Assembly (NCBI GenBank): GCA_038255915.1
Contig: JBBSKY010000003.1
Coordinates: 10,577-74,576 of the forward strand
Direction of reading: 5' to 3'
Source: Acidimicrobiales bacterium
GTDB taxonomy: Bacteria; Actinomycetota; Acidimicrobiia; Acidimicrobiales; JAUJNH01
Length of the DNA stretch: 64,000 nucleotides
Shown: piece after piece, positions 1 through 55,052 of the stretch
Numbering within the stretch: position 1 is the first letter of the stretch
Layout: each line of letters opens with the position of its first letter
Notes under the pieces: model-generated
The model's database searches: none
The model's input: the letters and a program-made list of their open reading frames with translations, nothing else
What the model was told of the DNA's origin: nothing
Translations under genes and position numbers: made by a program

Positions 1-560
1 ACGATCCCCCCGGTGCTGCCGTAGCCACCGGCGTCGCCGAAGGGGAAGATCCCGCCGTCGCTGGCCACGAGCCAGTAGCCGTTGCCCGTCTTGGTGGCCG
101 CCATCCCCACCACCGGCTTGTTCAGCACGATGCCGCCCGTCGAGCCGTACCCGCCGGCGTCACCGAACGGGAAGATCCCCCCGTCGCTCGCCACCAGCCA
201 GTAGCCGTTGCCCGTCGGGGTCGCGGCCATCCCCACCACCGGCTTGTTCAGCACGATGCCGCCGGTCGAGCCGTACCCGCCGGCGTCACCGAACGGGAAG
301 ATCCCCCCGTCGCTGGCCACCAGCCAGTACCCCCGGCCCGTCGGCGACGCCGCCATCCCGACGATCGGCTTGTTCAGCCGGATGGCGCCCGTCGAGCCGT
401 ACCCGCCGGCGTCACCGAACGGGAAGATCCCCCCGTCGCTGGCCACCAGCCAGTACCCCCGGCCCGAGGGCGAGGCGGCCATCCCGACCAGCGGGAAGTT
501 GAGGGGCTTGCCGGCGGTGGAGCCCAGGTCGGGGGCGTCACCGAAGGCGAACACCTCCTT
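1..560. repeat. 126-bp tandem repeat (coding, at least 4.4 units) encoding the 42-aa protein repeat
   Basis: The anchor word caccgaacgggaagatcccc or a close variant starts at 35, 161, 287, 413 and 539, giving a period of 126. By eye I count about 10-15 mismatches per 126-bp unit between neighbouring units. Confidence 0.85.
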
Positions 561-1154
561 GGCGGGGGCCGAGGTGGGGGCGGCGGGCAGGCAGGGGGCG
601 CTGTGGGTCGCCGTGCGGTTGTCAGTGCGGCTGGTGGTGGTGCACGCCGGGCTCCACACCCACGGCGGCGTGCACAGGGCGATGCGGCAGACCACGGGCC
701 CGGCGCAGGCGATCTGGGTGTTGCACTGGCCGTAGCGGAACTGGTTGCAGCACACCCTGCGCTCGTCGCAGGTGCCCGAGGCGCACCGGCAGCTGCACTG
801 GGTGGGGCAGGTGGCGTTGCAGTCGACGATGTAGCGGGCTGCACCGCTGCAGAAGGGCGAGGCGTCGATCTTCCACCAGCCCGCCGCGAACGAGCCGGGC
901 GGGCAGGTGTTGGAGCCGTGAACGGTGCAGCAGAACGCCGTCCACCCCTCGCTGCAGGTGGCGCCGTCGCCGCACACCGAGGCGTAGGCCGTGCCGGGGC
1001 GCAGGATGTAGCCGACCCCTCCGGTGGCCAGGGCCGAGCCGACGACGGCGGCGGCCTGAAGGACGCTGCGTCGGTCGGTCCCCCGGTCGAGGGCGATGGC
1101 GGCCCGCTCGACGAGGCGCTCGGTCAGGGGTCGCCGGGTCGCCTCCGCGGCCAT
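1..1154 (-). CDS. Tat-signal secreted protein: 20-Cys domain followed by tandem 42-aa beta-propeller-like repeats (C-terminus beyond window edge)
   Basis: Own minus-strand translation from ATG 1154..1152 (ATGA overlap with the stop of ORF 1154..1645). It is open to the window edge, so it is absent from the ORF track. N-terminus is MAAEATRRPLTERLVERAAIALDRGTDRRSVLQAAAVVGSALATGG (RR motif plus hydrophobic region). About 105 aa follow with 20 Cys (VCGDGATCSEGWTAFCCTVHGSNTCPPGS...RVCCNQFRYGQCN...). Then come at least 5 units of GYWLVASDGGIFPFGDAGGYGSTG.I.LNKP.VGMAA. Confidence 0.8.
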   Translation of the reverse strand, partial: MAAEATRRPLTERLVERAAIALDRGTDRRSVLQAAAVVGSALATGGVGYILRPGTAYASVCGDGATCSEGWTAFCCTVHGSNTCPPGSFAAGWWKIDASPFCSGAARYIVDCNATCPTQCSCRCASGTCDERRVCCNQFRYGQCNTQIACAGPVVCRIALCTPPWVWSPACTTTSRTDNRTATHSAPCLPAAPTSAPAKEVFAFGDAPDLGSTAGKPLNFPLVGMAASPSGRGYWLVASDGGIFPFGDAGGYGSTGAIRLNKPIVGMAASPTGRGYWLVASDGGIFPFGDAGGYGSTGGIVLNKPVVGMAATPTGNGYWLVASDGGIFPFGDAGGYGSTGGIVLNKPVVGMAATKTGNGYWLVASDGGIFPFGDAGGYGSTGGI

Positions 1155-1645
1155 CAGGAACCCACCTGCACGCTGGCGAGCACCTCGTTGGCCCGGGGCA
1201 CCAGCTTGCGGGCCAGGCCGTGGGAGCCGAGGACCACGTAGAGGCCGAGCGCCCGGCCGTTGATCGTATACCACGACTGGTGGCCGGCCTGGCCGAGGAG
1301 GGTGCGCTGGAGGCCGTTGCGGGCGAACCTCGACGGCTCCAGCCGGGGGAGGCGGTCGCCGGCGAACAGGGCCGTGCCGGCGCACTCGGGCCCGAACTCG
1401 AGCAGGGCCACGAACACGTCGTCGGGTCCCATCACCTCGACGGCCCCGCTGCCGAAGTCGCCCCGGTCGCCCGGCAGCCCGAAGGTGGCCAGGTGGGCCA
1501 CCGGCAGGACCTGCTCCTCGGGGAGGGGCGTGGCCCCGTACTGGGCGCCGGCGACGCGGGCCTGCACCCGGTCGAGGCGGCGGGAGATGGCCCCTTCCCA
1601 CCCCCTCGGGAGGTCGACGCTGAGGCCGTGGGCGGCGAGGTGCAT
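1154..1645 (-). CDS. Hypothetical cytoplasmic protein, translationally coupled to the Cys-rich repeat protein
   Basis: ORF track, 163 aa with ordinary (not Arg/Pro-shadow) composition. ATG at 1645. Its stop overlaps the downstream start (ATGA at 1151-1156). I recognise no family motif. Confidence 0.6.
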   Translation of the reverse strand: MHLAAHGLSVDLPRGWEGAISRRLDRVQARVAGAQYGATPLPEEQVLPVAHLATFGLPGDRGDFGSGAVEVMGPDDVFVALLEFGPECAGTALFAGDRLPRLEPSRFARNGLQRTLLGQAGHQSWYTINGRALGLYVVLGSHGLARKLVPRANEVLASVQVGS

Positions 1646-1711
1646 GGCGGTGCTCCGATGTCGTGCGGCGGGTTGGGGTGCCGAAGGTGGGTGCGGGGGG
1701 AGGTCAACGGA

Positions 1712-2320
1712 TCAGGCGGCGGGCAGGACCAGCAGGAGGGCCAGGGCGGCGACCCCGGCCTGGGACGAGCGGACGGCGCGGTCGGCGGGTCGGGCCCACG
1801 ACGAGAGGCGCAGGTGGAGGCGGCGGAGGCCCTCCGGCGTCGAGGTGCGGGCGGTGAGCAGCAGGGGCATGGCCCGAACCGACCCGAAGGCCAGGCCGAC
1901 GACGGCGCCTCCGGCCACCGACTGGGAGGCCAGGGCGGCGACGAGGGCGGCCCAGGTGGCCGACGCCGTCACGATGGTGACGACGCCGAGCCCGAGCTGG
2001 AAGCCGAAGCCGACGCCCACCACCCAGCCCCGGTAGCGCCCGATCCACCCCTCGTCGACCTGGCGGCGCAGCGTGGGCAGGCGCAGGCCGAGGAGCCGGG
2101 CGTCGGCGGCGAGGCCGAGGAGGGCGGCGACGGCCACCACCAGCAGGGCGCCTTTCGGCGGCAGGTCGAGCCCGGCGGCCCCCAGGCCGGCGCCGACCAG
2201 GCCGGCGGCGGCGCCCACGACCAGCCCCCCGAGCCCGCACGCGACCGCGTAGGACCCCGCGGTAAGCCACCACCGGCTGCCGCGCCCCTGCTCGCCGAGC
2301 GGGGTGATGCTGCCCAGCAT
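1712..2320 (-). CDS. Polytopic membrane protein of unknown function
   Basis: ORF track, 202 aa. ATG at 2320 is preceded by GAGGCGAG. It has several Gly/Ala/Leu/Val-rich hydrophobic spans (GLGGLVVGAAAGLVGAGLGAAG, ALLVVAVAALLGLAA, VVGVGFGFQLGLGVVTIVTA, AGVAALALLLVLPAA). Confidence 0.6.
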   Translation of the reverse strand: MLGSITPLGEQGRGSRWWLTAGSYAVACGLGGLVVGAAAGLVGAGLGAAGLDLPPKGALLVVAVAALLGLAADARLLGLRLPTLRRQVDEGWIGRYRGWVVGVGFGFQLGLGVVTIVTASATWAALVAALASQSVAGGAVVGLAFGSVRAMPLLLTARTSTPEGLRRLHLRLSSWARPADRAVRSSQAGVAALALLLVLPAA

Positions 2321-2397
2321 CGACTCGCCTCAGGGCGACCAGGTCGAGCGGACCGCGGCCAGGGCGGCGAGGAGGACCCCGAGGGTCACCACGGGGG

Positions 2398-3168
2398 TCA
2401 TGACGGGGCCACCGGGGCGGGCCCGTCGTCGGCGGCGTCGAGGGGGCGGTAGAGGCTCGGGTCGCCGGGGCGGAGCCCGGCCCGGATCAGCGTGTCGTCG
2501 ATCTCACCCTCCCGCTCGGCGTCGGCCCGGGCCTTGTCGCCCCGGCGGGCGGCCAGTCGGGTCCGGTGGGCGGCGTCGTCGACCGATCGACCGAGCAGCG
2601 ACAGGACCTGGGCGAAGGTGGGCGCCGTTCCTTCGCCCGCCACCTTGCCCGAGGCCCCGTCGACCAGCACCACGTAGGGCGAGCCGGGGACGGCGTAGTC
2701 CTGCCAGGCCTGGGTGGACAGGACTGTGGGCAGGTGACGGGGCGCCAGCTCGGCCAGCAGCGAGACGTGCTCGCGGTCGGCGGCCTGAGCCACCACGACC
2801 AGGCGGGTGCCCTGGGGCAGGGCGAGGTCGGGGTCGGCCATCGCCTCCCAGAAGGCGCCGCAGGTCGAGCACCCACTCGAGAGGAAGGCCAGGATCGTGT
2901 CGTGCTCGACCTCGGTGACCCGGATGGCCAGGGCGCTGTCGTCGAGGCCGAGGCCGCTGACGTCGTGAGCCGGCAGCGAGGCCGGGCGGCCGGCCGTGGG
3001 GCCGGGCAGCTCGGTGCGGGGGCGGCGCGTCGGGGTGGGTCGCTCGGCTGAGTCGACCCCGAGCTCGTGGAAGCGGCGCAGGATGGTGGCGTGGCTGCGG
3101 AGCAGGCCGCTGACCAGGACGACCAACACGGCGAGCACCACCGTCTCGAGCACGACGAGGACGGTCAC
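2398..3168 (-). CDS. Membrane-anchored thioredoxin-like protein (TlpA/MauD-like)
   Basis: This is the C-terminal 256 codons of track ORF 2398..4104. GTG at 3168 overlaps the stop of the upstream gene (GTGA). N-terminal TM is VTVLVVLETVVLAVLVVLVSGLL. The CxxC motif lies in AFLSSGCSTCGAFWE. The upstream 300 aa of the track ORF are an Arg/Pro/Gly shadow overlapping other genes. Confidence 0.75.
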   Translation of the reverse strand: MTVLVVLETVVLAVLVVLVSGLLRSHATILRRFHELGVDSAERPTPTRRPRTELPGPTAGRPASLPAHDVSGLGLDDSALAIRVTEVEHDTILAFLSSGCSTCGAFWEAMADPDLALPQGTRLVVVAQAADREHVSLLAELAPRHLPTVLSTQAWQDYAVPGSPYVVLVDGASGKVAGEGTAPTFAQVLSLLGRSVDDAAHRTRLAARRGDKARADAEREGEIDDTLIRAGLRPGDPSLYRPLDAADDGPAPVAPS

Positions 3169-3692
3169 CGGCTCAGCTGGCGTTGGGCCGCCAGCAGGGC
3201 CGGCAGCGAGGTGAGGCACAGGCCCATGGCCCAGGCCCCGACCACCGCCGCGGCGACGTAGGGCAGGCCGAGGACGGGCTGGTCGGCGAGCACCGTGGGC
3301 AGCGCGGGGACCGAGTCGACCAGGGCGACGGCCACGAGCCCGCCGGCGAGGAGGTTCACCACGACGTGGAGCAGGTCGGCCGGCGCCTCGGCGCCCCCGA
3401 AGCAGCCGCAGCTGGCCTTGGCCCCGGCCGCCCGGCGCAGCTGGGCGATGAAACCGGCGAAGCCGAGGTGGAGGAGCCCCAGGGCGACGGCGGGGACGAG
3501 ACCTCCGACGAGCAGGACGGCGCCGGCCACCGCGACCTCGACCAGGGCCAGGAGGCGCACCACCTGCGGGCCGCCGGGCAGGCCGGCCTGGCCCAGGGCG
3601 ACCGAGGCCGACGTCGGGTCCCCCAGCTTGGCCGCCGCCGCCACCAGGAGAAGGAGAGCGAGGGCGTGCACCACACCGACGAACATCACCAT
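3165..3692 (-). CDS. MauE/DoxX-family membrane protein
   Basis: In-frame ATG at 3692 (MVMFVGVVHALALLLLVAAA...). Four hydrophobic spans and the family-typical CGCFG motif (AKASCGCFGGAE). The first 79 codons of the track ORF overlap the rlmI-like gene end and are Arg/Pro-rich. Confidence 0.75.
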   Translation of the reverse strand: MVMFVGVVHALALLLLVAAAAKLGDPTSASVALGQAGLPGGPQVVRLLALVEVAVAGAVLLVGGLVPAVALGLLHLGFAGFIAQLRRAAGAKASCGCFGGAEAPADLLHVVVNLLAGGLVAVALVDSVPALPTVLADQPVLGLPYVAAAVVGAWAMGLCLTSLPALLAAQRQLSR

Positions 3693-3748: not shown

Positions 3749-4996
3749 CTACGGAGGGGACCGGTGGACGCGGGCGAAGAGCGCCTTGAGGTAGGCGCCC
3801 TGGGGGAAGCCGACGGGATGGTCGACGGGATGCCCCGTGTGGCGGATCTCCTCCAGCCGGCAGCCGGCCCCCGCGGCACCAGCGAGCACCTCGGCGAAGA
3901 AGTCGTCGGCACCGATCCGGCTGGAGCACGAGGCCTGGACCAGCAGCCCGCCGCCCTCGACGAGCCGCACGGCCAGGTCGGTGAGGCGCCGGTAGGCCCG
4001 CCGCGCCCCCGCCACCCCGGCCTGGGTGTGGGCGAACGAGGGAGGGTCGACGACGACCACGTCGTAGCGCTCGCCGGCGGCGCCCAGAGCGGCCATGACG
4101 GCAAAGGCGTCGCCGACGGTGCTGTCCAGGCGGCAGCCCCGGACCGCCGACAGGGCCTTGTTGTGGCCGAAGTTTGCCCGGGCCGTGTCCAGCGCCCCGG
4201 CGCTCAGGTCCACGCAGCGCACCGACCGGGCCCCGCCCGCGGCAGCGGACAGCGAGAAGCCCCCGGTGCAGGCGAACACGTCGAGCACCCGGGCATCGGC
4301 GGCCTGGTCGCCCACCAGCCGGCGGTTCTCGCGCTGGTCCAGGAAGTGGCCCGTCTTCTGCCCGACGACGATGTCGGCCTCCAGCACCAGGCCGTTCTCC
4401 CGGAACAGCACCGGCCCGCCCGGGTCCTCACCCACCAGGACGGTGCCGTCGGCCAGGCCGGGGAGATCGTCGCCCAGGGCCCGGCTCAGGCGCAGGACCA
4501 CGACCTCCGGAGCCAGCAGCTGCCCGAGCACCGCCACCACGGTGCGCAGGTGGGGCACCCAGGCCGCCGAGTAGAGCTTGACGACCAACGCCGGGCCGTA
4601 GCGGTCGACCACCAGACCGGGAAGGCCGTCGTTCTCGCCGTGCACGCAGCGGAACCCGGTGGTCTCGGTCGAGGCGAGGAGCCCGGCGCGGCGGTCCAGG
4701 GCGTCGGCGAACCGCTGGCGCCACCAGGCGTCGTCGATCGGCACGGGCGGGCCGTGGTGCAGCATCCGCACCCGGATCGGCGAGGCTGGGTCGTACAGGC
4801 CGATGCCCTGGAAGCGGCGCTCACCATCGAAGATGACGGCGAGGTCGCCGGCCCGGCCGCCGTCGGGGCACGACGTGATCGACGACTCGAACACCCACGG
4901 GTGGCCGCCCCGGATCTGGCGCAGGGCGTCCTTGGTCACCCGCACGGCCAGCCGCCGCTCCCCCGGCAGCGGCAGCCGGGCCAGGGCGTCGTCCAC
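3749..4996 (-). CDS. Class I SAM-dependent rRNA methyltransferase, RlmI/RlmK-like (PUA-like N-terminus)
   Basis: 415 aa. GHPWVF near the N-terminus, QKTGHFLDQRENR, the SAM-binding stretch VLDVFACTGGFS, and VVVVDPPSF. Confidence 0.85.
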   Translation of the reverse strand: MDDALARLPLPGERRLAVRVTKDALRQIRGGHPWVFESSITSCPDGGRAGDLAVIFDGERRFQGIGLYDPASPIRVRMLHHGPPVPIDDAWWRQRFADALDRRAGLLASTETTGFRCVHGENDGLPGLVVDRYGPALVVKLYSAAWVPHLRTVVAVLGQLLAPEVVVLRLSRALGDDLPGLADGTVLVGEDPGGPVLFRENGLVLEADIVVGQKTGHFLDQRENRRLVGDQAADARVLDVFACTGGFSLSAAAGGARSVRCVDLSAGALDTARANFGHNKALSAVRGCRLDSTVGDAFAVMAALGAAGERYDVVVVDPPSFAHTQAGVAGARRAYRRLTDLAVRLVEGGGLLVQASCSSRIGADDFFAEVLAGAAGAGCRLEEIRHTGHPVDHPVGFPQGAYLKALFARVHRSPP

Positions 4997-5842: not shown

Positions 5843-6880
5843 CTACCTCTCCGACGAGACGCCGCTGCCGACCGGCTCCCGATCCTCCTCGTTGCGGTGC
5901 CAGATGGTCCGTTGCGGGAACGGGATCTCGATGCCCTCGGCGTCGAACTCCCGCTTGATGCGGGCCCGCAGCTCGCGGGCCACCTTCCACTGGGTCAGGG
6001 GCTGGGTCTGGACCACCAGACGGATGGTCACGCCGTCGGCGGCAAGCTCCTCTACGCCCCACACCTCGGGTGTCGACAGGATGCACGCCGACCACTCGGG
6101 GTCGTCGTGCAGGCCCTCGGCCACCCGTTCGATGACCCGGACGGCGTCGTCGGTCGGGGTCTGGTAGGAGACCTGGATGTCGAGCAGGGCCCGCGACCAC
6201 TCCTGGGACTTGTTGGCCACCCGGGCGATCTCACCGTTCGGGATGTGCCACACGTTGCCCTCCACGTCGCGCAGGCGGGTGGCGCGCAGGCTGATGCCCT
6301 CCACCGTGCCCGTGGCCGGGCCCACGTCGATGACGTCGCCGACGCCGTACTGGTCCTCGATCAGGATGAAGAAGCCGGAGAAGAAGTCGCGCACCAGGTT
6401 CTGGGCGCCGAAGCCCAAGGCGATGCCGGCGATGCCGGCACCGGCGACCAGCGGGCCCAGGTTCACGCCGAGCTCGCCCAGCACCATCAGGCCCGCCATA
6501 CCCCAGACCATGAAGCCGGCGGCGCTGACCAGGAGGGTGCCGATGGTCTCGGCCCGCTGGACGGTGCGGACGCTGGTCCGACCGCCGGTGCGCAGCAGCG
6601 CGCCAGGCGAGCGGTCGCCCACGTTCGCAGCGCCTTCGGCGGTGACCGACTTGAGGCCCCGCGTGAAGCGGCGGATCCCCCGGCGCAGGAGCCAGGTGGC
6701 CACCATCGCCAGGACGACGATGAGGGCGATCTTGATCGGCTTGGCCAGGAAGATGTCGGCGGCCTGGGCCAGCGACTCCCTGTTGGTCACCTTGAAGACC
6801 CCGGTGCAGAGCTTGCCGGCCTGTCCGGCCTCGCCGCAGGCGGTGATCACCGTCTCAGCGTGTCCCAGGAGCGGGCTCAC
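5843..6880 (-). CDS. Mechanosensitive ion channel, MscS family
   Basis: GAGIAGIALGFGAQNLVRDFFSGFFILIEDQYGVGDVIDV is the MscS signature region. The start is uncertain: in-frame GTG at 6880 is preferred, while the track start at 6982 would add an Arg-rich extension. Confidence 0.85.
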   Translation of the reverse strand: MSPLLGHAETVITACGEAGQAGKLCTGVFKVTNRESLAQAADIFLAKPIKIALIVVLAMVATWLLRRGIRRFTRGLKSVTAEGAANVGDRSPGALLRTGGRTSVRTVQRAETIGTLLVSAAGFMVWGMAGLMVLGELGVNLGPLVAGAGIAGIALGFGAQNLVRDFFSGFFILIEDQYGVGDVIDVGPATGTVEGISLRATRLRDVEGNVWHIPNGEIARVANKSQEWSRALLDIQVSYQTPTDDAVRVIERVAEGLHDDPEWSACILSTPEVWGVEELAADGVTIRLVVQTQPLTQWKVARELRARIKREFDAEGIEIPFPQRTIWHRNEEDREPVGSGVSSER

Positions 6881-7039
6881 GAGAGCAGGCCCCAGGTCTG
6901 GATGTCGGGCATCAGCATCTCCCCTTCGCGGCCGACGTGCGGCCACCCAGTCACAACGGCCTCGCCGAGCCGCACCCGTCATCCTTCCCAGCCGCCCCTC
7001 CTCCGAACCGCGCTCGGAGGATCGGCGCTACCGGGAGGT

Positions 7040-7645: not shown

Positions 7646-11897
<4,252 letters not shown>

Positions 11898-19407: not shown

Positions 19408-20775
19408 TCAGCGCCGAAGGCGTGTGCCCTGTGGCGTGTCCTCCACCGCCCAGCCCCGCTCGACCAGCTCGGCTCGCAGGCGGTCGGCGGCCGCCCAGTC
19501 CTTGGCTTCGCGGGCCTGGTCGCGGGCCGAGGCCAGGTCGAGGGCGGCGGGATCGATCTCCCCGGTCTTGCCGGCCAGGTCGAGGCCCACGGCCCCGGTC
19601 GCCTCCCGCACCAGGCGCACCAGCCGGGCGGCGTCGTCGGGGCGGTCGGCGTCGAGGGCGGCGTTGGCCTCCCGGGCCCAGTCGAACACCAGGGCCAGGG
19701 CCCGCACGGTGTTGAGGTCGTCCTCCATGGCCGCCACCCACGGCTCGAGCGCCGCCCGGTCGAGCGGCGCCTCCGGGTCGAGGTCGGCTTCGATGGCCCG
19801 GCGGTCGAGGCGGTCGAGGGTGCCCAGGCTGCGCTCGGCGGCGCCGATCGAGGCGGTGTCGACCAGCAGCGGCGAGCGGTAGTGGGCCTGGAGGAGGAGC
19901 AGGCGGTAGGCCCGGTGGTCGACCCGCTCCAGCAGGTCGGTGAGCGAGGTGAAGTTTCCCAGGCTCTTCGACATCTTCTCGCCGGCGGCGTCGACCACAA
20001 AGGCGTGGTGCATCCAGTGCCGGGCGAAGGCGCGCCCAAGGACCAGGGCGTGGGCCCGCTCGTTCTCGTGGTGGGGGAACTTGAGGTCGAGCCCGCCGGT
20101 GTGCAGGTCGAAGCCGTCGCCCAGGAGGTCGAGGCTCATGGCCACGCACTCGGTGTGCCAGCCCGGCCGGCCGTCGCCCCACGGCGAGGCCCACGTGGGC
20201 TCGCCCGGCTTGGCCAGCTTCCAGAGCACGAAGTCGAGCGGGTTGCGCTTCTCCTCCTGGCGACCCTCGTCGACCCGCTCGGTGGTGCGCAGCTGGCGCA
20301 GGTCCTGTTGGGCCAGCAGGCCGTAGCCCTCGACCTCCTCGACGGCCAGGTACACCCCGTCGGAGGTCGGGTACGCGGCGCCGCGCTCGACCAGCTCGGC
20401 GATCACCTCGATCATCCGCGTCACGAAGTCGGTGGCCTTGGGGGCGTCGGTCGGGCGCAGGGCGCCGAGGCGGTCGACCGCCGCCCACCACTCGGCCTCG
20501 TAGCGCCGGGCCACTTCGGCGGGGTCCTCGCCCAGAGCCTGGCCACGCTTGATGATGTTGTCGTCGATGTCGGTGACGTTGGAGACGTGGCGGACCTCGA
20601 GACCCGACCACTCGAGGAAGCGGCGCAGGATGTCGTAGGTCAGGATCGAGCGGCCGTGCCCGATGTGGGGCAGGTCATAGACGGTGGGGCCGCACACGTA
20701 CAGCGACACCCGCCCGGGGTCGCGCTGGGCCAGCTGGCGCACCATCCCTGTGGCCGTGTCGTGCAGCCGGAGCAT
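19408..20775 (-). CDS. cysS: Cysteine--tRNA ligase
   Basis: 455 aa. CGPTVYDLPHIGHGR (HIGH), WHTECV, KMSKSLGN, and a C-terminal KDWAAADRLRAEL...GW. Confidence 0.95.
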   Translation of the reverse strand: MLRLHDTATGMVRQLAQRDPGRVSLYVCGPTVYDLPHIGHGRSILTYDILRRFLEWSGLEVRHVSNVTDIDDNIIKRGQALGEDPAEVARRYEAEWWAAVDRLGALRPTDAPKATDFVTRMIEVIAELVERGAAYPTSDGVYLAVEEVEGYGLLAQQDLRQLRTTERVDEGRQEEKRNPLDFVLWKLAKPGEPTWASPWGDGRPGWHTECVAMSLDLLGDGFDLHTGGLDLKFPHHENERAHALVLGRAFARHWMHHAFVVDAAGEKMSKSLGNFTSLTDLLERVDHRAYRLLLLQAHYRSPLLVDTASIGAAERSLGTLDRLDRRAIEADLDPEAPLDRAALEPWVAAMEDDLNTVRALALVFDWAREANAALDADRPDDAARLVRLVREATGAVGLDLAGKTGEIDPAALDLASARDQAREAKDWAAADRLRAELVERGWAVEDTPQGTRLRR

Positions 20776-20957
20776 GGCCGCAGGATAGAGGTGGCGACGC
20801 GGCAGGCCGGTAGGGATTGGGCGGCTGCTAGGGTCGTTCTTCGGTCAGGCGTGCCTCAGCCTGGCCTCTCCCCCCGGTGCATCGTGCGTTGAGGCTCGCA
20901 GCGACCCGCTCCTGAAGCTGGCCCGCCACCTCGTCGCAACAGATCCTGGAGATCAAC

Positions 20958-22229: not shown

Positions 22230-22242
22230 GTGAGCGGAGAAA

Positions 22243-22266
22243 GGGCCGCCGGGCGACCGGCGGCCC
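22243..22266 (+). terminator. Hairpin after the helicase gene (10-bp stem gggccgccgg/ccggcggccc, loop gcga)
   Basis: Perfect GC-rich stem 14 nt after the stop. Confidence 0.55.
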
Positions 22267-22284
22267 ACCCGTAGGCTGGCCCGG

Positions 22285-24834
22285 GTGACACGGAGCGTTC
22301 CCGACAAGCCCAGCCTCGACGGGATCGAGGAGGCCTTGGCGGCCCGGTGGGAGGCCGAGGGGACCTATGCCTTTGACCGCGGCGCCGAGCGTGCGGAGGT
22401 GTACTCCATCGACACGCCGCCGCCCACTGTGTCGGGGTCGCTGCACGTCGGCCACGTGTTCAGCTACACCCACACCGACGCCGTCGCCCGCTACCAGCGG
22501 ATGCGGGGCAAGACCGTCTTCTACCCGATGGGGTGGGACGACAACGGGCTGCCCACCGAGCGGCGGGTCGAGAACCACTTCGGGGTGCGCTGCGACCCGA
22601 ACGTGCCCTACGACCCCGGCTTCGCGCCGCCGGCCAAGCCCGACGACAAGCGCAAGGTGGCCATCAGCCGCCGCAGCTTCGTGGAGCTGTGCCAGCAGCT
22701 GACGGTCGAGGACGAGAAGGTCTTCGAGTCGCTGTGGCGGCGGCTGGGGCTGTCGGTCGACTGGGCCATGACCTACGCCACCATCGGCGAGACGGCCCGG
22801 CGGGCCAGCCAGCGCATGTTCCTGCGCAACCTGGCCCGGGGTGAGGCCTACTCGGCCGAGGCGCCCACCATCTGGGACGTCACCTTCCAGACGGCGGTGG
22901 CCCAGGCCGAGCTTGAGGACCGGGAGCGGCCGGGCGCCTACCACCGCTTCGGCTTCGCCCGGGCCGACGGCCAGGGTGCGGTGGAGATCGAGACCACCCG
23001 ACCCGAGCTGCTGGCCGCCTGCTGTGCCCTGGTGGCCCACCCCGACGACGAGCGCTACAAGCCGCTGTTCGGCACCATCGTCACCACGCCCCTGTTCGAG
23101 GTCGAGGTGCCGGTGCTGGCCCACGAGCTGGCCCAGCCCGACAAGGGCTCGGGCATCGCCATGATCTGCACGTTCGGCGACACCACCGATGTCACCTGGT
23201 GGCGCGAGCTGCAGCTGCCCACCCGGTCGATCCTCGAGCGCAACGGGCGCACCAAGGCCGACTGCCCCGAGTGGATCACCACCGGCGCCGGCCGGGCCGC
23301 CTACGAGCGGCTGGCGGGCAAGACGGTGTTCTCAGCTCAGGCCGCCGTGGTCGAGCATCTGCGCGAGACCGGGGCGCTGATCGGCGAGCCCCGGGCCATC
23401 ACCCACCCGGTGAAGTTCTACGAGAAGGGCGACCGGCCGCTCGAGATCGTCACCAGCCGCCAGTGGTACATCCGCAACGGCGGCCGTGACGCCGAGCTGC
23501 GGGCGGCCCTGGCCGCCAGGGGCGCAGAGGTCGACTGGCACCCGCCCTTCATGCGCCACCGCTACGAGAGCTGGGTGCAAGGCCTGAACGGCGACTGGCT
23601 CATCTCCCGCCAGCGCTACTTCGGCATTCCCTTCCCCGTCTGGTACCCGGTGGAGGCCGACGGCACGGTGGCCAACGACCGCCCGATCCTCCCGCCCGAG
23701 GACGCCCTTCCCATCGACCCCTCCTCCGACTGCCCGCCCGGCTACGACGAGGCCCAGCGGGGCCAGCCCGGCGGCTTCGTGGCCGACCCCGACGTGATGG
23801 ACACCTGGGCCACCTCCTCGCTCAGCCCCCAGATCGCCTGCGGCTGGGAGGACGACCCCGACCTGTTCGCCCGCACCTTCCCGATGGACCTTCGCCCCCA
23901 GGGCCACGACATCATCCGCACCTGGCTGTTCTCCACCATGGTCCGCTCCCACTTCGAGCACGGCGTGGCCCCGTGGCGCAACGCCGGCATCAGCGGGTGG
24001 ATCCTCGACCCCGACCGCAAGAAGATGTCGAAGTCGAAGGGCAACGTGGTCACCCCGCTCGGCCTGCTCGAGGAGCACGGCACCGACGGCGTGCGCTACT
24101 GGGCGGCCAGCGGGCGGCCCGGCACCGACACCGCCTTCGACCCCAACCAGATGAACGTGGGCCGGCGGCTGGCCAAGAAGCTGCTGAACGCCTCGCGCTT
24201 CGCCCTCAACCTGGGCGAGGCGCCGCCCGGCGCCGTCCCCACCGCCGCGGTCGACTTGTCGCTGCTGGCCGCCCTGGCCCGGCTGGTCACCGAGGCCACC
24301 AACGCCTTTGAGAGCTACGACTACGCCCGGGCCCTCGAGCGCACAGAATCGTTCTTCTGGTCGTTCTGCGACGACCACCTCGAGCTGGTCAAGCAGCGGT
24401 CCTACGGCGACGGCGGCGACGAGGGGGCGGCATCGGCCCGGGCCACCCTCGAGCTCACCCTGTCAGTGCTGCAGCGCCTGTTCGCCCCGTTCCTGTGCTT
24501 CGTCACCGAGGAGGTGTGGTCGTGGTGGCAGGAGGGCTCGATCCACCGGGCCGCCTGGCCGTCGGTGGCCGAGATCCCCGGCGACGGCGACCCGCTGGTG
24601 GCGGCGGTGGCCGCCCCCGCCCTGGCCGCAGTGCGTCGGGCCAAGAGCGAGCAGAAGCGTTCCCTGCTGTGGCCGGTCGAGCGCCTGGTCGTCACCGAGA
24701 AGCCCGAGCGCCTGGCCGCGCTGCGCCTGGCCGAGGGCGACCTGATCGCCGCCGGCACCCTCGCCGCAATCGAGTACGTCGAGCTGACCGGCGACGGCGT
24801 GGCCACCTACGACGTCACCCTCGGACCCGCCTGA
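22285..24834 (+). CDS. valS: Valine--tRNA ligase
   Basis: 849 aa. PPPTVSGSLHVGH, GWDDNGLPTE, WLISRQRYFGIPFP, and KMSKSKGN. Confidence 0.95.
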   Translation: MTRSVPDKPSLDGIEEALAARWEAEGTYAFDRGAERAEVYSIDTPPPTVSGSLHVGHVFSYTHTDAVARYQRMRGKTVFYPMGWDDNGLPTERRVENHFGVRCDPNVPYDPGFAPPAKPDDKRKVAISRRSFVELCQQLTVEDEKVFESLWRRLGLSVDWAMTYATIGETARRASQRMFLRNLARGEAYSAEAPTIWDVTFQTAVAQAELEDRERPGAYHRFGFARADGQGAVEIETTRPELLAACCALVAHPDDERYKPLFGTIVTTPLFEVEVPVLAHELAQPDKGSGIAMICTFGDTTDVTWWRELQLPTRSILERNGRTKADCPEWITTGAGRAAYERLAGKTVFSAQAAVVEHLRETGALIGEPRAITHPVKFYEKGDRPLEIVTSRQWYIRNGGRDAELRAALAARGAEVDWHPPFMRHRYESWVQGLNGDWLISRQRYFGIPFPVWYPVEADGTVANDRPILPPEDALPIDPSSDCPPGYDEAQRGQPGGFVADPDVMDTWATSSLSPQIACGWEDDPDLFARTFPMDLRPQGHDIIRTWLFSTMVRSHFEHGVAPWRNAGISGWILDPDRKKMSKSKGNVVTPLGLLEEHGTDGVRYWAASGRPGTDTAFDPNQMNVGRRLAKKLLNASRFALNLGEAPPGAVPTAAVDLSLLAALARLVTEATNAFESYDYARALERTESFFWSFCDDHLELVKQRSYGDGGDEGAASARATLELTLSVLQRLFAPFLCFVTEEVWSWWQEGSIHRAAWPSVAEIPGDGDPLVAAVAAPALAAVRRAKSEQKRSLLWPVERLVVTEKPERLAALRLAEGDLIAAGTLAAIEYVELTGDGVATYDVTLGPA

Positions 24835-54977: not shown

Positions 54978-55052
54978 TGGCTCGGGGGCAGCGGATCGAA
55001 CGCTGATAACGAGATCCAAAATCTCGGGTCCTGCCATTTGGACGACCCCCGA
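54978..55052 (-). tRNA. tRNA-Gln (anticodon UUG)
   Basis: Manual cloverleaf on the minus strand. Acceptor is TCGGGGG/CCCCCGA (U1-A72). D-arm is GTCC-AAATGGCA-GGAC. Anticodon arm is CGAGA-TTTTGGA-TCTCG. Variable region is TTAT. T-arm is CAGCG-TTCGATC-CGCTG. Discriminator is G, and CCA is encoded. 75 nt. Confidence 0.9.

Follow-up and report, generated by a model that had tools for sequence, protein, structure and literature searches.

The 64,000-nucleotide stretch of DNA analysed here (the window; Acidimicrobiales bacterium, assembly GCA_038255915.1, contig JBBSKY010000003.1, positions 10,577 to 74,576 of the forward strand) begins with five tightly packed, co-directional genes, which an inspection of its open reading frames (ORFs) places on the minus strand within positions 1..3692, just as an earlier reading of the letters alone (the sequence-only reading) had described them. 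We consider it probable that the locus is a self-contained maturation operon of the mau type, in which the protein to be matured, termed the client in the following, is not methylamine dehydrogenase (MADH) but a member of an unnamed family of Actinomycetota with a twin-arginine translocation (Tat) signal. Proteins of this family combine an N-terminal domain of ~130 aa that contains 16–20 Cys residues with an interchangeable C-terminal module. The features of the locus, all on the minus strand, are as follows.

3692..3165, minus strand: MauE-family membrane protein, 175 aa, CGCFG motif
3168..2398, minus strand: MauD-like thioredoxin-fold protein, GTG start, 256 aa, CSTC motif
2401..1712, minus strand: MauF-like polytopic membrane protein, 229 aa including the putatively recoded residue
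2332-2330, minus strand: in-frame TGA, predicted selenocysteine (Sec) codon at the invariant Cys position of the MauF family (WSP-U-GES)
2306..2321, minus strand: candidate selenocysteine insertion sequence (SECIS) stem-loop GAUGCU-NNNN-AGCAUC, which begins 9 nt past the UGA
1645..1154, minus strand: p163, a 163-aa cytoplasmic protein of an unnamed family
ATG 1154 to beyond the left window end, minus strand: Cys-rich protein with an RR signal (the client), 384 aa visible
981..1154, minus strand: twin-arginine leader of the client, ~58 aa, TIGR01409
585..980, minus strand: Cys-rich domain of the client, residues ~59-190, 20 Cys of which 16 are conserved
1..560, minus strand: C-terminal array of 42-aa repeats in the client, cut by the window edge, with a 126-bp period at the DNA level

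The stop codon of the mauE-like gene and the GTG start of the thioredoxin-like gene overlap as GTGA, as originally noted. The ATGA overlap that had been assigned to the p163 gene and the client gene needs correction, since their junction reads TGATG, with an overlap of 1 nt.

Accessory genes and their linkage to the client

The first gene product matches the Pfam family MauE (PF07291) with 51.8 bits at a cut-off of 27, which secures its earlier assignment as a MauE-like protein. The consensus of 55 relatives retains a Lys in the first and a Glu in the second transmembrane (TM) segment together with a CXC motif that directly precedes F-G (CGCfG), and these are the hallmarks of the DsbB-like, quinone-linked and disulfide-forming MauE proteins (Gonzalez et al., bioRxiv 10.64898/2026.03.05.709764). 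The thioredoxin-like protein encoded next has an N-terminal TM anchor, the CSTC motif and a VPGSP loop. It is without a match in Pfam, and its sole NCBIfam match is MauD (TIGR02661), with an E-value of 2e-4 and 20.9 bits, far under the cut-off of 188.6 bits. A profile built from 76 relatives reached the MauD proteins of Paracoccus and Methylobacterium with 30.4–30.6 and 28.9 bits, respectively, and gave weaker scores (18.7–21.2 bits) for the thioredoxin-like genes of two other light-chain loci. Shared with MauD are the CxxC motif, the N-terminal TM segment and an L.R....L..HE segment following it. By these sequence comparisons the protein is a homologue of MauD, not a demonstrated orthologue or equivalog; the MauD-like character proposed in the sequence-only reading is thus backed by the single NCBIfam match and by the family profile, which extends to Paracoccus MauD at 30.6 bits. 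After the thioredoxin domain, the 76 relatives share a conserved C-terminal tail, D.eL.aaGi.PGdpsLy, which lies within the final 60 aa of the window protein (positions 2398-2590). This tail was not seen in Paracoccus MauD, for which no explicit alignment was made.

The fourth gene product, p163, has no Pfam or NCBIfam match, and its 1400 homologues are all named hypothetical. Its AlphaFold 2 (AF2) model, with a mean confidence (pLDDT) of 90.1, is a globular alpha/beta sandwich, and the protein has no signal peptide. Foldseek returned weak structural neighbours (best E 0.05–0.1), namely PsbP, Tsi3, MucB, EagT6, MTC28 and LpqN, all of them alpha/beta sandwiches that bind partners. Cytoplasmic secretion chaperones or adaptors of the PsbP/Mog1/DUF1795-like fold exist, EagT6 being an example, and so do chaperones that bind Tat leaders. 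p163 resembles these proteins in lacking a signal peptide, in its modelled sandwich fold and in the position of its gene directly before that of a client with a long leader; it differs from EagT6-type chaperones in having no sequence-family match and Foldseek matches that are all at E >=0.05. The p163 gene invariably precedes the Cys-rich gene as its direct upstream neighbour. On the basis of the model, p163 can reasonably be regarded as a candidate chaperone that may bind the leader or the precursor of the client. An identity of p163 with MauJ or another mau product was ruled out, as no match was obtained.

For a survey of gene linkage, the ORFs of all loci in six frames were searched with hidden Markov models (HMMs) of the components, and the counts refer to those 59 loci whose upstream sequence extends over at least 3.2 kb. 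Beside the Cys-rich gene, the p163 and thioredoxin-like genes were present in 59/59 loci, mauE in 58/59 and the mauF-like gene in 40/59. The linked genes were located on the same strand, frequently with overlapping stop and start codons. Two gene orders were observed, mauE-trx-mauF-p163-client as in the window and mauE-trx-p163-client-mauF, and this constancy of the gene set in the face of a variable order speaks for a functional module. The linkage argues for a dedicated association of the accessory genes with the client, beyond chance, and agrees with the idea of the sequence-only reading that the MauE/thioredoxin pair serves the Cys-rich protein. As a side observation, 98 representatives of the Cys-rich family include one with an additional match to Pfam MauE (E 3.9e-9) and one with a match to DsbC_N. 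Such proteins may result from fused genes or from the merging of gene calls, and in both cases they would agree with a functional link.

Genes for the remaining components of authentic mau clusters were absent from these neighbourhoods. Paracoccus MauB, MauG, MauC, MauJ, MauM and MauN gave no tblastn match in 84 loci plus the window, the neighbourhood gene lists contained neither a MauB heavy chain (PF06433) nor MauG, and no amicyanin, flavoprotein or radical-SAM gene was found in any locus examined. The absence of mauG, already remarked upon for the window, thus extends, together with that of mauB, to every locus of the tblastn search.

The client family is large. Its N-terminal 200 aa have 416 relatives in a protein collection clustered at 90%, the Cys-rich family comprises 492 clusters at 50% identity (E<=1e-3), and at least 583 relatives occur in GTDB species genomes. 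Among the 80 loci that were kept, all named records belong to Actinomycetota, the hosts being Acidimicrobiia, Nitriliruptoria, Euzebyales, Frankiales, Mycobacteriales, Nakamurella and Jatrophihabitans; among the matches listed, those closest to the client stem from metagenome-assembled genomes of Acidimicrobiales (85–90%).

The client protein: leader, Cys-rich domain and C-terminal modules

The RR signal of the client passes the NCBI model TIGR01409 (18.6 bits, cut-off 16.7), and the two arginines are near-invariant in the family, so that the Tat signal recognized in the sequence-only reading stands, with export itself being a prediction. The leader has a conserved N-region, ERLV...A...RRS/FL, followed by a hydrophobic region and a cleavage-type motif, AYA. 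The mature part opens with C-x5-C-x7-CC-x7-CPPG and contains 20 Cys between residues 61 and 188 (spacings 5, 7, 0, 7, 17 ... 0, 7), 16 of which are conserved, compared with 12 Cys in MauA, the light chain of MADH. Cys number and spacing had been given correctly before, as had the Cys pattern of MauA, which we compared with PDB entry 1mg2_B; the stretch carrying them, put at about 105 aa, in fact spans 128 aa. Invariant in the family are, in addition, a GWWK motif (W93, W94, K95), a FRYGQC motif (R140, Y141, Q143) and the residues D111, D130, R132 and R157. No Pfam domain covers the Cys-rich region.

Similarity to MauA was most evident at the level of precursors. In MauA precursors as in the client family, the leader is unusually long (~57–58 aa), and its N-region, which precedes the twin arginines, is conserved, as exemplified by FDDLFEKMSRKVAGHTSRRGFIGR and LDRWTQRLVRGAARGTSRRGLLSR for MauA and by SFTERLVNRLARRTSSRRGFLTA and ALVDRVATALAGRTSRRGFLAR for the Cys-rich family. 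When the first 192 columns of the family alignment were compared with MauA precursors by hhalign, a probability of 96.1% and an E-value of 3.7e-9 were obtained, with client residues 8-91 aligned to MauA 4-110 in a collinear manner, from the leader through CPPG. The score of 61.6 compares with 14.6 +/- 2.8 (maximum 24.8) for 120 column shuffles, corresponding to a z-score of ~17, and an independent profile of 115 representatives gave essentially the same result (96.7%, E 4.1e-10). When 10,404 ORFs were searched with an HMM of the leader alone, the four precursors of the MauA/AauA type in this set came out as the top four non-family matches. Taken together, the leader HMM and the precursor alignments indicate a likeness that exceeds a generic Tat motif, and we conclude from these sequence comparisons that client and MauA precursors are related, the relationship comprising at least the leader together with the first Cys cluster. 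Beyond this cluster, the ~100 residues left of the client are either too diverged for recognition or different.

With the mature domain alone, the signal became faint. Aligned to a profile of 121 MauA sequences, the domain matched over 12–22 columns around DG..C.CC..G...CPPG with a probability of 5–6% (P ~0.006), at a score of 22.2 that exceeded all 200 column shuffles (mean 13.7, maximum 21.4); hhalign of the domain against a single MauA was non-significant, and a search of the mature domain in NCBIfam gave no match to MauA. A permissive alignment pairs W94 with Trp57 of the tryptophan tryptophylquinone (TTQ) cofactor, and an Ala with Trp108. The light-chain-like domain postulated in the sequence-only reading is consequently retained for the leader and the first Cys cluster (hhalign 96–97%), not for the mature domain by itself or for anything after CPPG. 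An AF2 model of the N-terminal 200 aa had a pLDDT of 64.5, with a core of ~70–83.

The visible C-terminal part of the client consists of a 42-aa repeat, GYWLVASDGGIFPFGDA..YGS, which Tandem Repeats Finder detects as a 126-bp period with 3.8 copies at 18..494. At the protein level we count four GYWLVASDGG units, the last one cut by the window edge, and one degenerate first unit, so that the unit length stated earlier is right and its count of at least five slightly generous. Complete homologues (L007, L008, L044, L045, L050 and L052) contain 4–6 copies of the GYWLV repeat. Neither Pfam nor the PDB yielded a significant match to the array; judged by its sequence, it may form a small beta-propeller. 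A long plus-strand ORF antisense to the array (205-735; G+C content at third codon positions 0.98) is explained by the repeats in combination with the high G+C content and is not a gene. In other members of the family the C-terminus is an interchangeable module, mostly of the wall-binding or lectin type: Pfam searches of the 98 representatives identified LGFP in 45, CW_binding_2 (CWB2) in 6, FG-GAP-type repeats in 4–5, DUF4214 in 3, ricin-B in 2 and SLH in 1, and further proteins carry B_lectin, DGRLEVF repeats or a short tail alone. In one locus (L076), masked bases translated as X interrupt the LGFP region of the client, which is a data artefact. The idea of a light-chain-like domain fused to its own propeller does not hold in general, as LGFP, CWB2, lectins, FG-GAP or no module at all take the place of the repeat array elsewhere, and we rejected the propeller as a built-in heavy chain because the modules are swappable and MauB is without matches.

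The MauF-like protein and its in-frame TGA

The polytopic membrane protein, which the sequence-only reading had left without a name, is annotated as a 202-aa ORF starting at 2320. This start is a miscall. The true start is ATG 2401, in an ATGA overlap with the stop codon of the thioredoxin-like gene; it opens MTPVVTLGVLLAALAAVRSTWSP-TGA-GESMLGSITPLGE... in frame with the annotated ORF, and the frame continues through the TGA at 2332-2330. Homologues read ...RGTWSPCGLSMLSSITPFGE.... No curated model exists for MauF; for reference, we retrieved the mauFBEDACJGMN cluster around a Paracoccus MauA, in which the gene upstream of mauB, reading ...LSTWSPCGYSSISLLRPTGRG..., is MauF. A profile of 53 members of the MauF-like family matched this protein over its full length with 103.5 bits (E 6e-28 at Z=1e6) and Methylobacterium MauF with 86.5 bits, covering profile positions 4-218 of 227, and a TWSP[C/U]G.S motif is common to the family, including the window protein, and both authentic MauFs. 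By this profile evidence, the membrane protein is a MauF homologue. Two proteobacterial light-chain loci (L088 and L089), with mauB-mauE-mauD-mauA only, have no MauF gene in their 6-kb flanks, which means that MauF is not universal even among authentic light chains. Loci with mauE, trx, p163 and client genes and no MauF-like gene in the flanks are L008, L012-L017, L019, L027, L030, L045, L050-L052, L066 and L082, among them a complete Aquihabitans chromosome (L012); the MauF-like gene of these 16 loci may reside elsewhere in the genome or may be dispensable.

Some members of the family also match Pfam DsbD_2 (PF13386), all below the cut-off (best 22.9 bits versus 24.9), which hints at a distant kinship with the thiol-disulfide transporters CcdA/DsbD. 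These have the same polytopic membrane build and likewise carry an SPC-type motif within their first hydrophobic segment or close to it. They differ in having two redox residues, whereas the MauF-like family has one conserved Cys/Sec.

The codon aligned with TGA 2332-2330 is TGA in 40 loci and TGC or TGT in 13, with the frame conserved on both sides, and it corresponds to the single conserved Cys of the MauF family, which both authentic MauFs have at this place. A relative with 90% identity (L004) retains the TGA at 3393-3395 with synonymous and conservative differences upstream. In general, the 20–24 codons 5’ of the TGA are conserved in frame and show synonymous differences. The two forms differ in position as well: TGA forms are always located between trx and p163, Cys forms always downstream of the client. 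Downstream of the TGA, the stem GAUGCU-NNNN-AGCAUC is completely paired (6/6) in 34/40 TGA forms versus 0/13 Cys forms, and at least 5 of its 6 pairs form in 37/40 TGA-form loci. The Ser codon in the 3’-arm of the stem is AGC in 40/40 TGA forms and in 0/13 Cys forms, which have TCG, ACG, GCG, TCA or ACC instead. The candidate SECIS helix is 95.7% paired and invariant; covariation was not detected by RNAalifold or pair counting, no Rfam match was obtained, and the folding energy is ordinary at this G+C content (z-score 0.26). A lower stem (columns 13-17 with 37-41) was dropped because it is only 68% paired. Given the in-frame conservation around the TGA and its alternation with Cys codons, we consider it very probable that the TGA encodes selenocysteine. 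Sec/Cys pairs mark redox-active residues, and the interchange in this family would make the invariant Cys/Sec of MauF a redox-active one.

It is very unlikely that the TGA is a true stop which leaves a split or truncated mauF-like gene, re-initiated at ATG 2320, and no selenoprotein at all. Gene callers do truncate the product at the TGA and annotate the downstream ORF of 202–203 aa (203 aa in L004), and the hairpin lacks covariation, an Rfam SECIS match and an unusual folding energy. Yet the TGA coincides precisely with the codon of the invariant Cys in 40 loci that represent several orders, 13 others having TGC/TGT, and the upstream codons are conserved in frame with synonymous differences. 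Moreover, Met 2320 is just as conserved in the Cys forms and thus not a dedicated start, and both the AGC codon and the stem are restricted to the TGA forms.

No other in-frame TGA candidate in the window was protein-like. Neither sel genes nor a gene for tRNA-Sec were seen in the window, for which a tRNA scan of its full length was combined with a search of ten large ORFs against protein families; the sole tRNA found is tRNA-Gln. The G+C content amounts to 72–78% across the first 10 kb of the window, and the surroundings of the locus are housekeeping genes, including, besides a DEAD-box helicase, the following.

3749-4996: RlmI-like 23S rRNA methyltransferase
5843-6982: MscS
9147-11897: catalase-peroxidase KatG
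19408-20844: CysS
22234-24834: ValS
54978-55052: tRNA-Gln

These neighbours indicate that the locus is chromosomal and not a mobile island.

Proposed maturation route, alternatives and relation to known systems

We propose the following sequence of events at such loci. p163 would keep the long leader or the unfolded precursor of the client in the cytoplasm until export. After Tat targeting, MauE, with its CGC motif and presumed to be quinone-linked and DsbB-like, would re-oxidize the membrane-anchored MauD-like thioredoxin (CSTC), which in turn would introduce 8–10 disulfides into the Cys-rich domain. The MauF-like protein with its single Sec/Cys might act as a second thiol/selenol relay, most likely by reshuffling disulfides or reducing wrong pairs, and the C-terminal module would hold the mature domain at the envelope, be it at the wall or at glycans. 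By analogy, its mode of operation may be that of MauFED and MauA within the mau cluster. The many invariant polar and aromatic residues would also be compatible with a domain that is catalytic or bears a cofactor; among the neighbouring genes, none codes for an enzyme of cofactor formation.

Several observations weigh against a mau-type maturation operon for a relative of MauA. PF02975, the light-chain family against which the sequence-only reading had suggested a profile search, did not match the window protein at E<=1 or any of 59 relatives at E<=10, and the Cys-rich domain as query, searched by phmmer and as a profile, found no match in the PDB. Likewise, the family HMM failed to match four MauA ORFs even at E<=1000. 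Foldseek comparison of the N-terminal model with the PDB gave nothing below E=2.6 and no MADH chain, at a pLDDT of 64.5 that is too weak for a real negative. The region after CPPG scored 7.7 against MauA, below the shuffle mean of 11.9, which deprives the correspondences noted earlier in this part, a Trp after CPPG and CC-x7-C, of statistical weight. It is thus not proven that the whole domain and MauA have a common ancestor, and the leader could be an address tag that both use. Regarding the accessory proteins, MauE is viewed as a generalist oxidase that mostly occurs without MauA (Gonzalez et al., bioRxiv 10.64898/2026.03.05.709764), a MauF-like gene is missing from the flanks in 16/52 loci with both flanks, and the chaperone role that we infer for p163 goes back to Foldseek neighbours with E-values of 0.05–0.1 at best. 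Finally, the directions of electron flow and the role of MauF are ones that we infer, and it is mechanistically awkward that a protein exported by Tat should have to form its disulfides outside the cytoplasm, a difficulty that MauA poses as well.

Along these lines, the Cys-rich domain could be a novel disulfide-rich fold unrelated to MauA, with the leader serving as an address tag for MauF/E/D and a short CPPG motif being all that the two precursors otherwise share. We regard this as unlikely. The domain-only tests are all weak or negative, and the leader contributes most of the hhalign score (61.5 for the precursor versus 22.2 for the domain). However, the alignment runs collinearly from the leader to C-x5-C ... 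CC ... CPPG, the domain-only score of the CPPG region lies above that of all 200 shuffles, and three accessory families are held in common with the mau system.

Another view would make the Cys-rich domain a quinoprotein module, in which a Trp-derived cross-link, TTQ-like or resembling cysteine tryptophylquinone (CTQ), forms on GWWK without MauG, assisted by MauF(Sec) and/or p163, to yield a wall-anchored amine or other oxidoreductase. The relationship of the client precursor to MauA precursors would be in line with this, as would W94 aligning with Trp57 in the permissive alignment and MauF being a redox protein that is also needed for MADH; furthermore, an invariant W93, W94 and K95 together with many polar residues would be unusual in a purely structural knot. 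All the same, such a module appears unlikely to us, as similarity is lacking after CPPG, where both TTQ tryptophans are located, the second of them aligning to Ala, and as no locus has a gene for MauG, MauB, amicyanin, a flavoprotein or a radical-SAM protein, while the fold predicted for p163 is of the binding-protein rather than the enzyme type. Doubtful to a similar degree is a bolder variant, according to which the clients are a new wall-anchored class descended from the TTQ small subunit, with a cross-link or quinone on GWWK/FRYGQC formed without MauG and with MauF acting as the (seleno)enzyme of a step common to both systems. If true, this common step of MauF could be an early step in the maturation of the MADH small subunit.

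That the MauE/thioredoxin pair is a general disulfide system and only an incidental neighbour of the Cys-rich gene is highly improbable. Elsewhere, MauE does act as a generalist substitute for DsbB, in phyla other than this one, and MauA is present in no more than ~10% of the species that have MauE (Gonzalez et al., bioRxiv 10.64898/2026.03.05.709764). Here, however, the linkage holds in 58–59/59 loci across several classes, the coding ends overlap, p163 and mauF-like genes are dedicated companions as well, and the gene set is kept while its order changes between lineages.

The preferred interpretation, a mau-type operon dedicated to the Cys-rich client, can be compared with what is known of related systems. 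MauA and AauA have a leader of the same unusual length, ~57–58 aa, including a conserved N-region E-R/K-L..R.A..TSRRxFL, the same first cluster, C-x5-C-x6/7-C(x)C-x7-CPPG, and adjacent genes for MauE, MauD-like and MauF-like proteins. The client differs from them in lacking a PF02975 match and the second TTQ Trp, in having 16–20 Cys instead of 12 and in its dissimilarity after CPPG, as well as in its fusion to wall-binding or lectin modules and in a host range of Actinomycetota rather than Proteobacteria. Client loci also differ from mau clusters by the absence of MauB, MauG, amicyanin, MauJ, MauM and MauN and by the additional p163. Relative to MauF, the family described here has a TGA at the invariant Cys in ~3/4 of the loci bearing a mauF-like gene, accompanied by a form-specific hairpin, and an N-terminus shorter than that of Paracoccus MauF. 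The MauE pathway of Gonzalez et al. (bioRxiv 10.64898/2026.03.05.709764) has the same CXC plus F-G, Lys and Glu residues and a thioredoxin-fold neighbour with CxxC, likewise without MADH; the role of MauE as a generalist oxidase is already known from that work, which contains no mention of Actinomycetota, MauF or selenocysteine. Here, by contrast, the pair is locked to one client gene and is accompanied by the MauF-like protein and p163. In the literature searched, we found no description of the five-gene module, of the client family or of the MauF-like family as a selenoprotein or of a Sec-containing MauF, and nothing relevant on a selenoprotein associated with MauE, on selenoproteins in these classes or on MauF.

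If our interpretation is correct, the MauF/MauE/MauD trio would be detached from methylamine metabolism and would serve a second, far larger client family, one that is without a Pfam domain or a name. To the selenoproteins of Acidimicrobiia, Nitriliruptoria, Euzebyales, Frankiales and Mycobacteriales, the family would add a predicted membrane protein that has gone unannotated. The Sec/Cys interchange would provide a direct handle on MauF, a protein without an assigned function since the description of the mau clusters. Finally, these loci would be a natural system for studying how a Tat-targeted protein with 8–10 disulfides is folded, the same puzzle that MauA poses.

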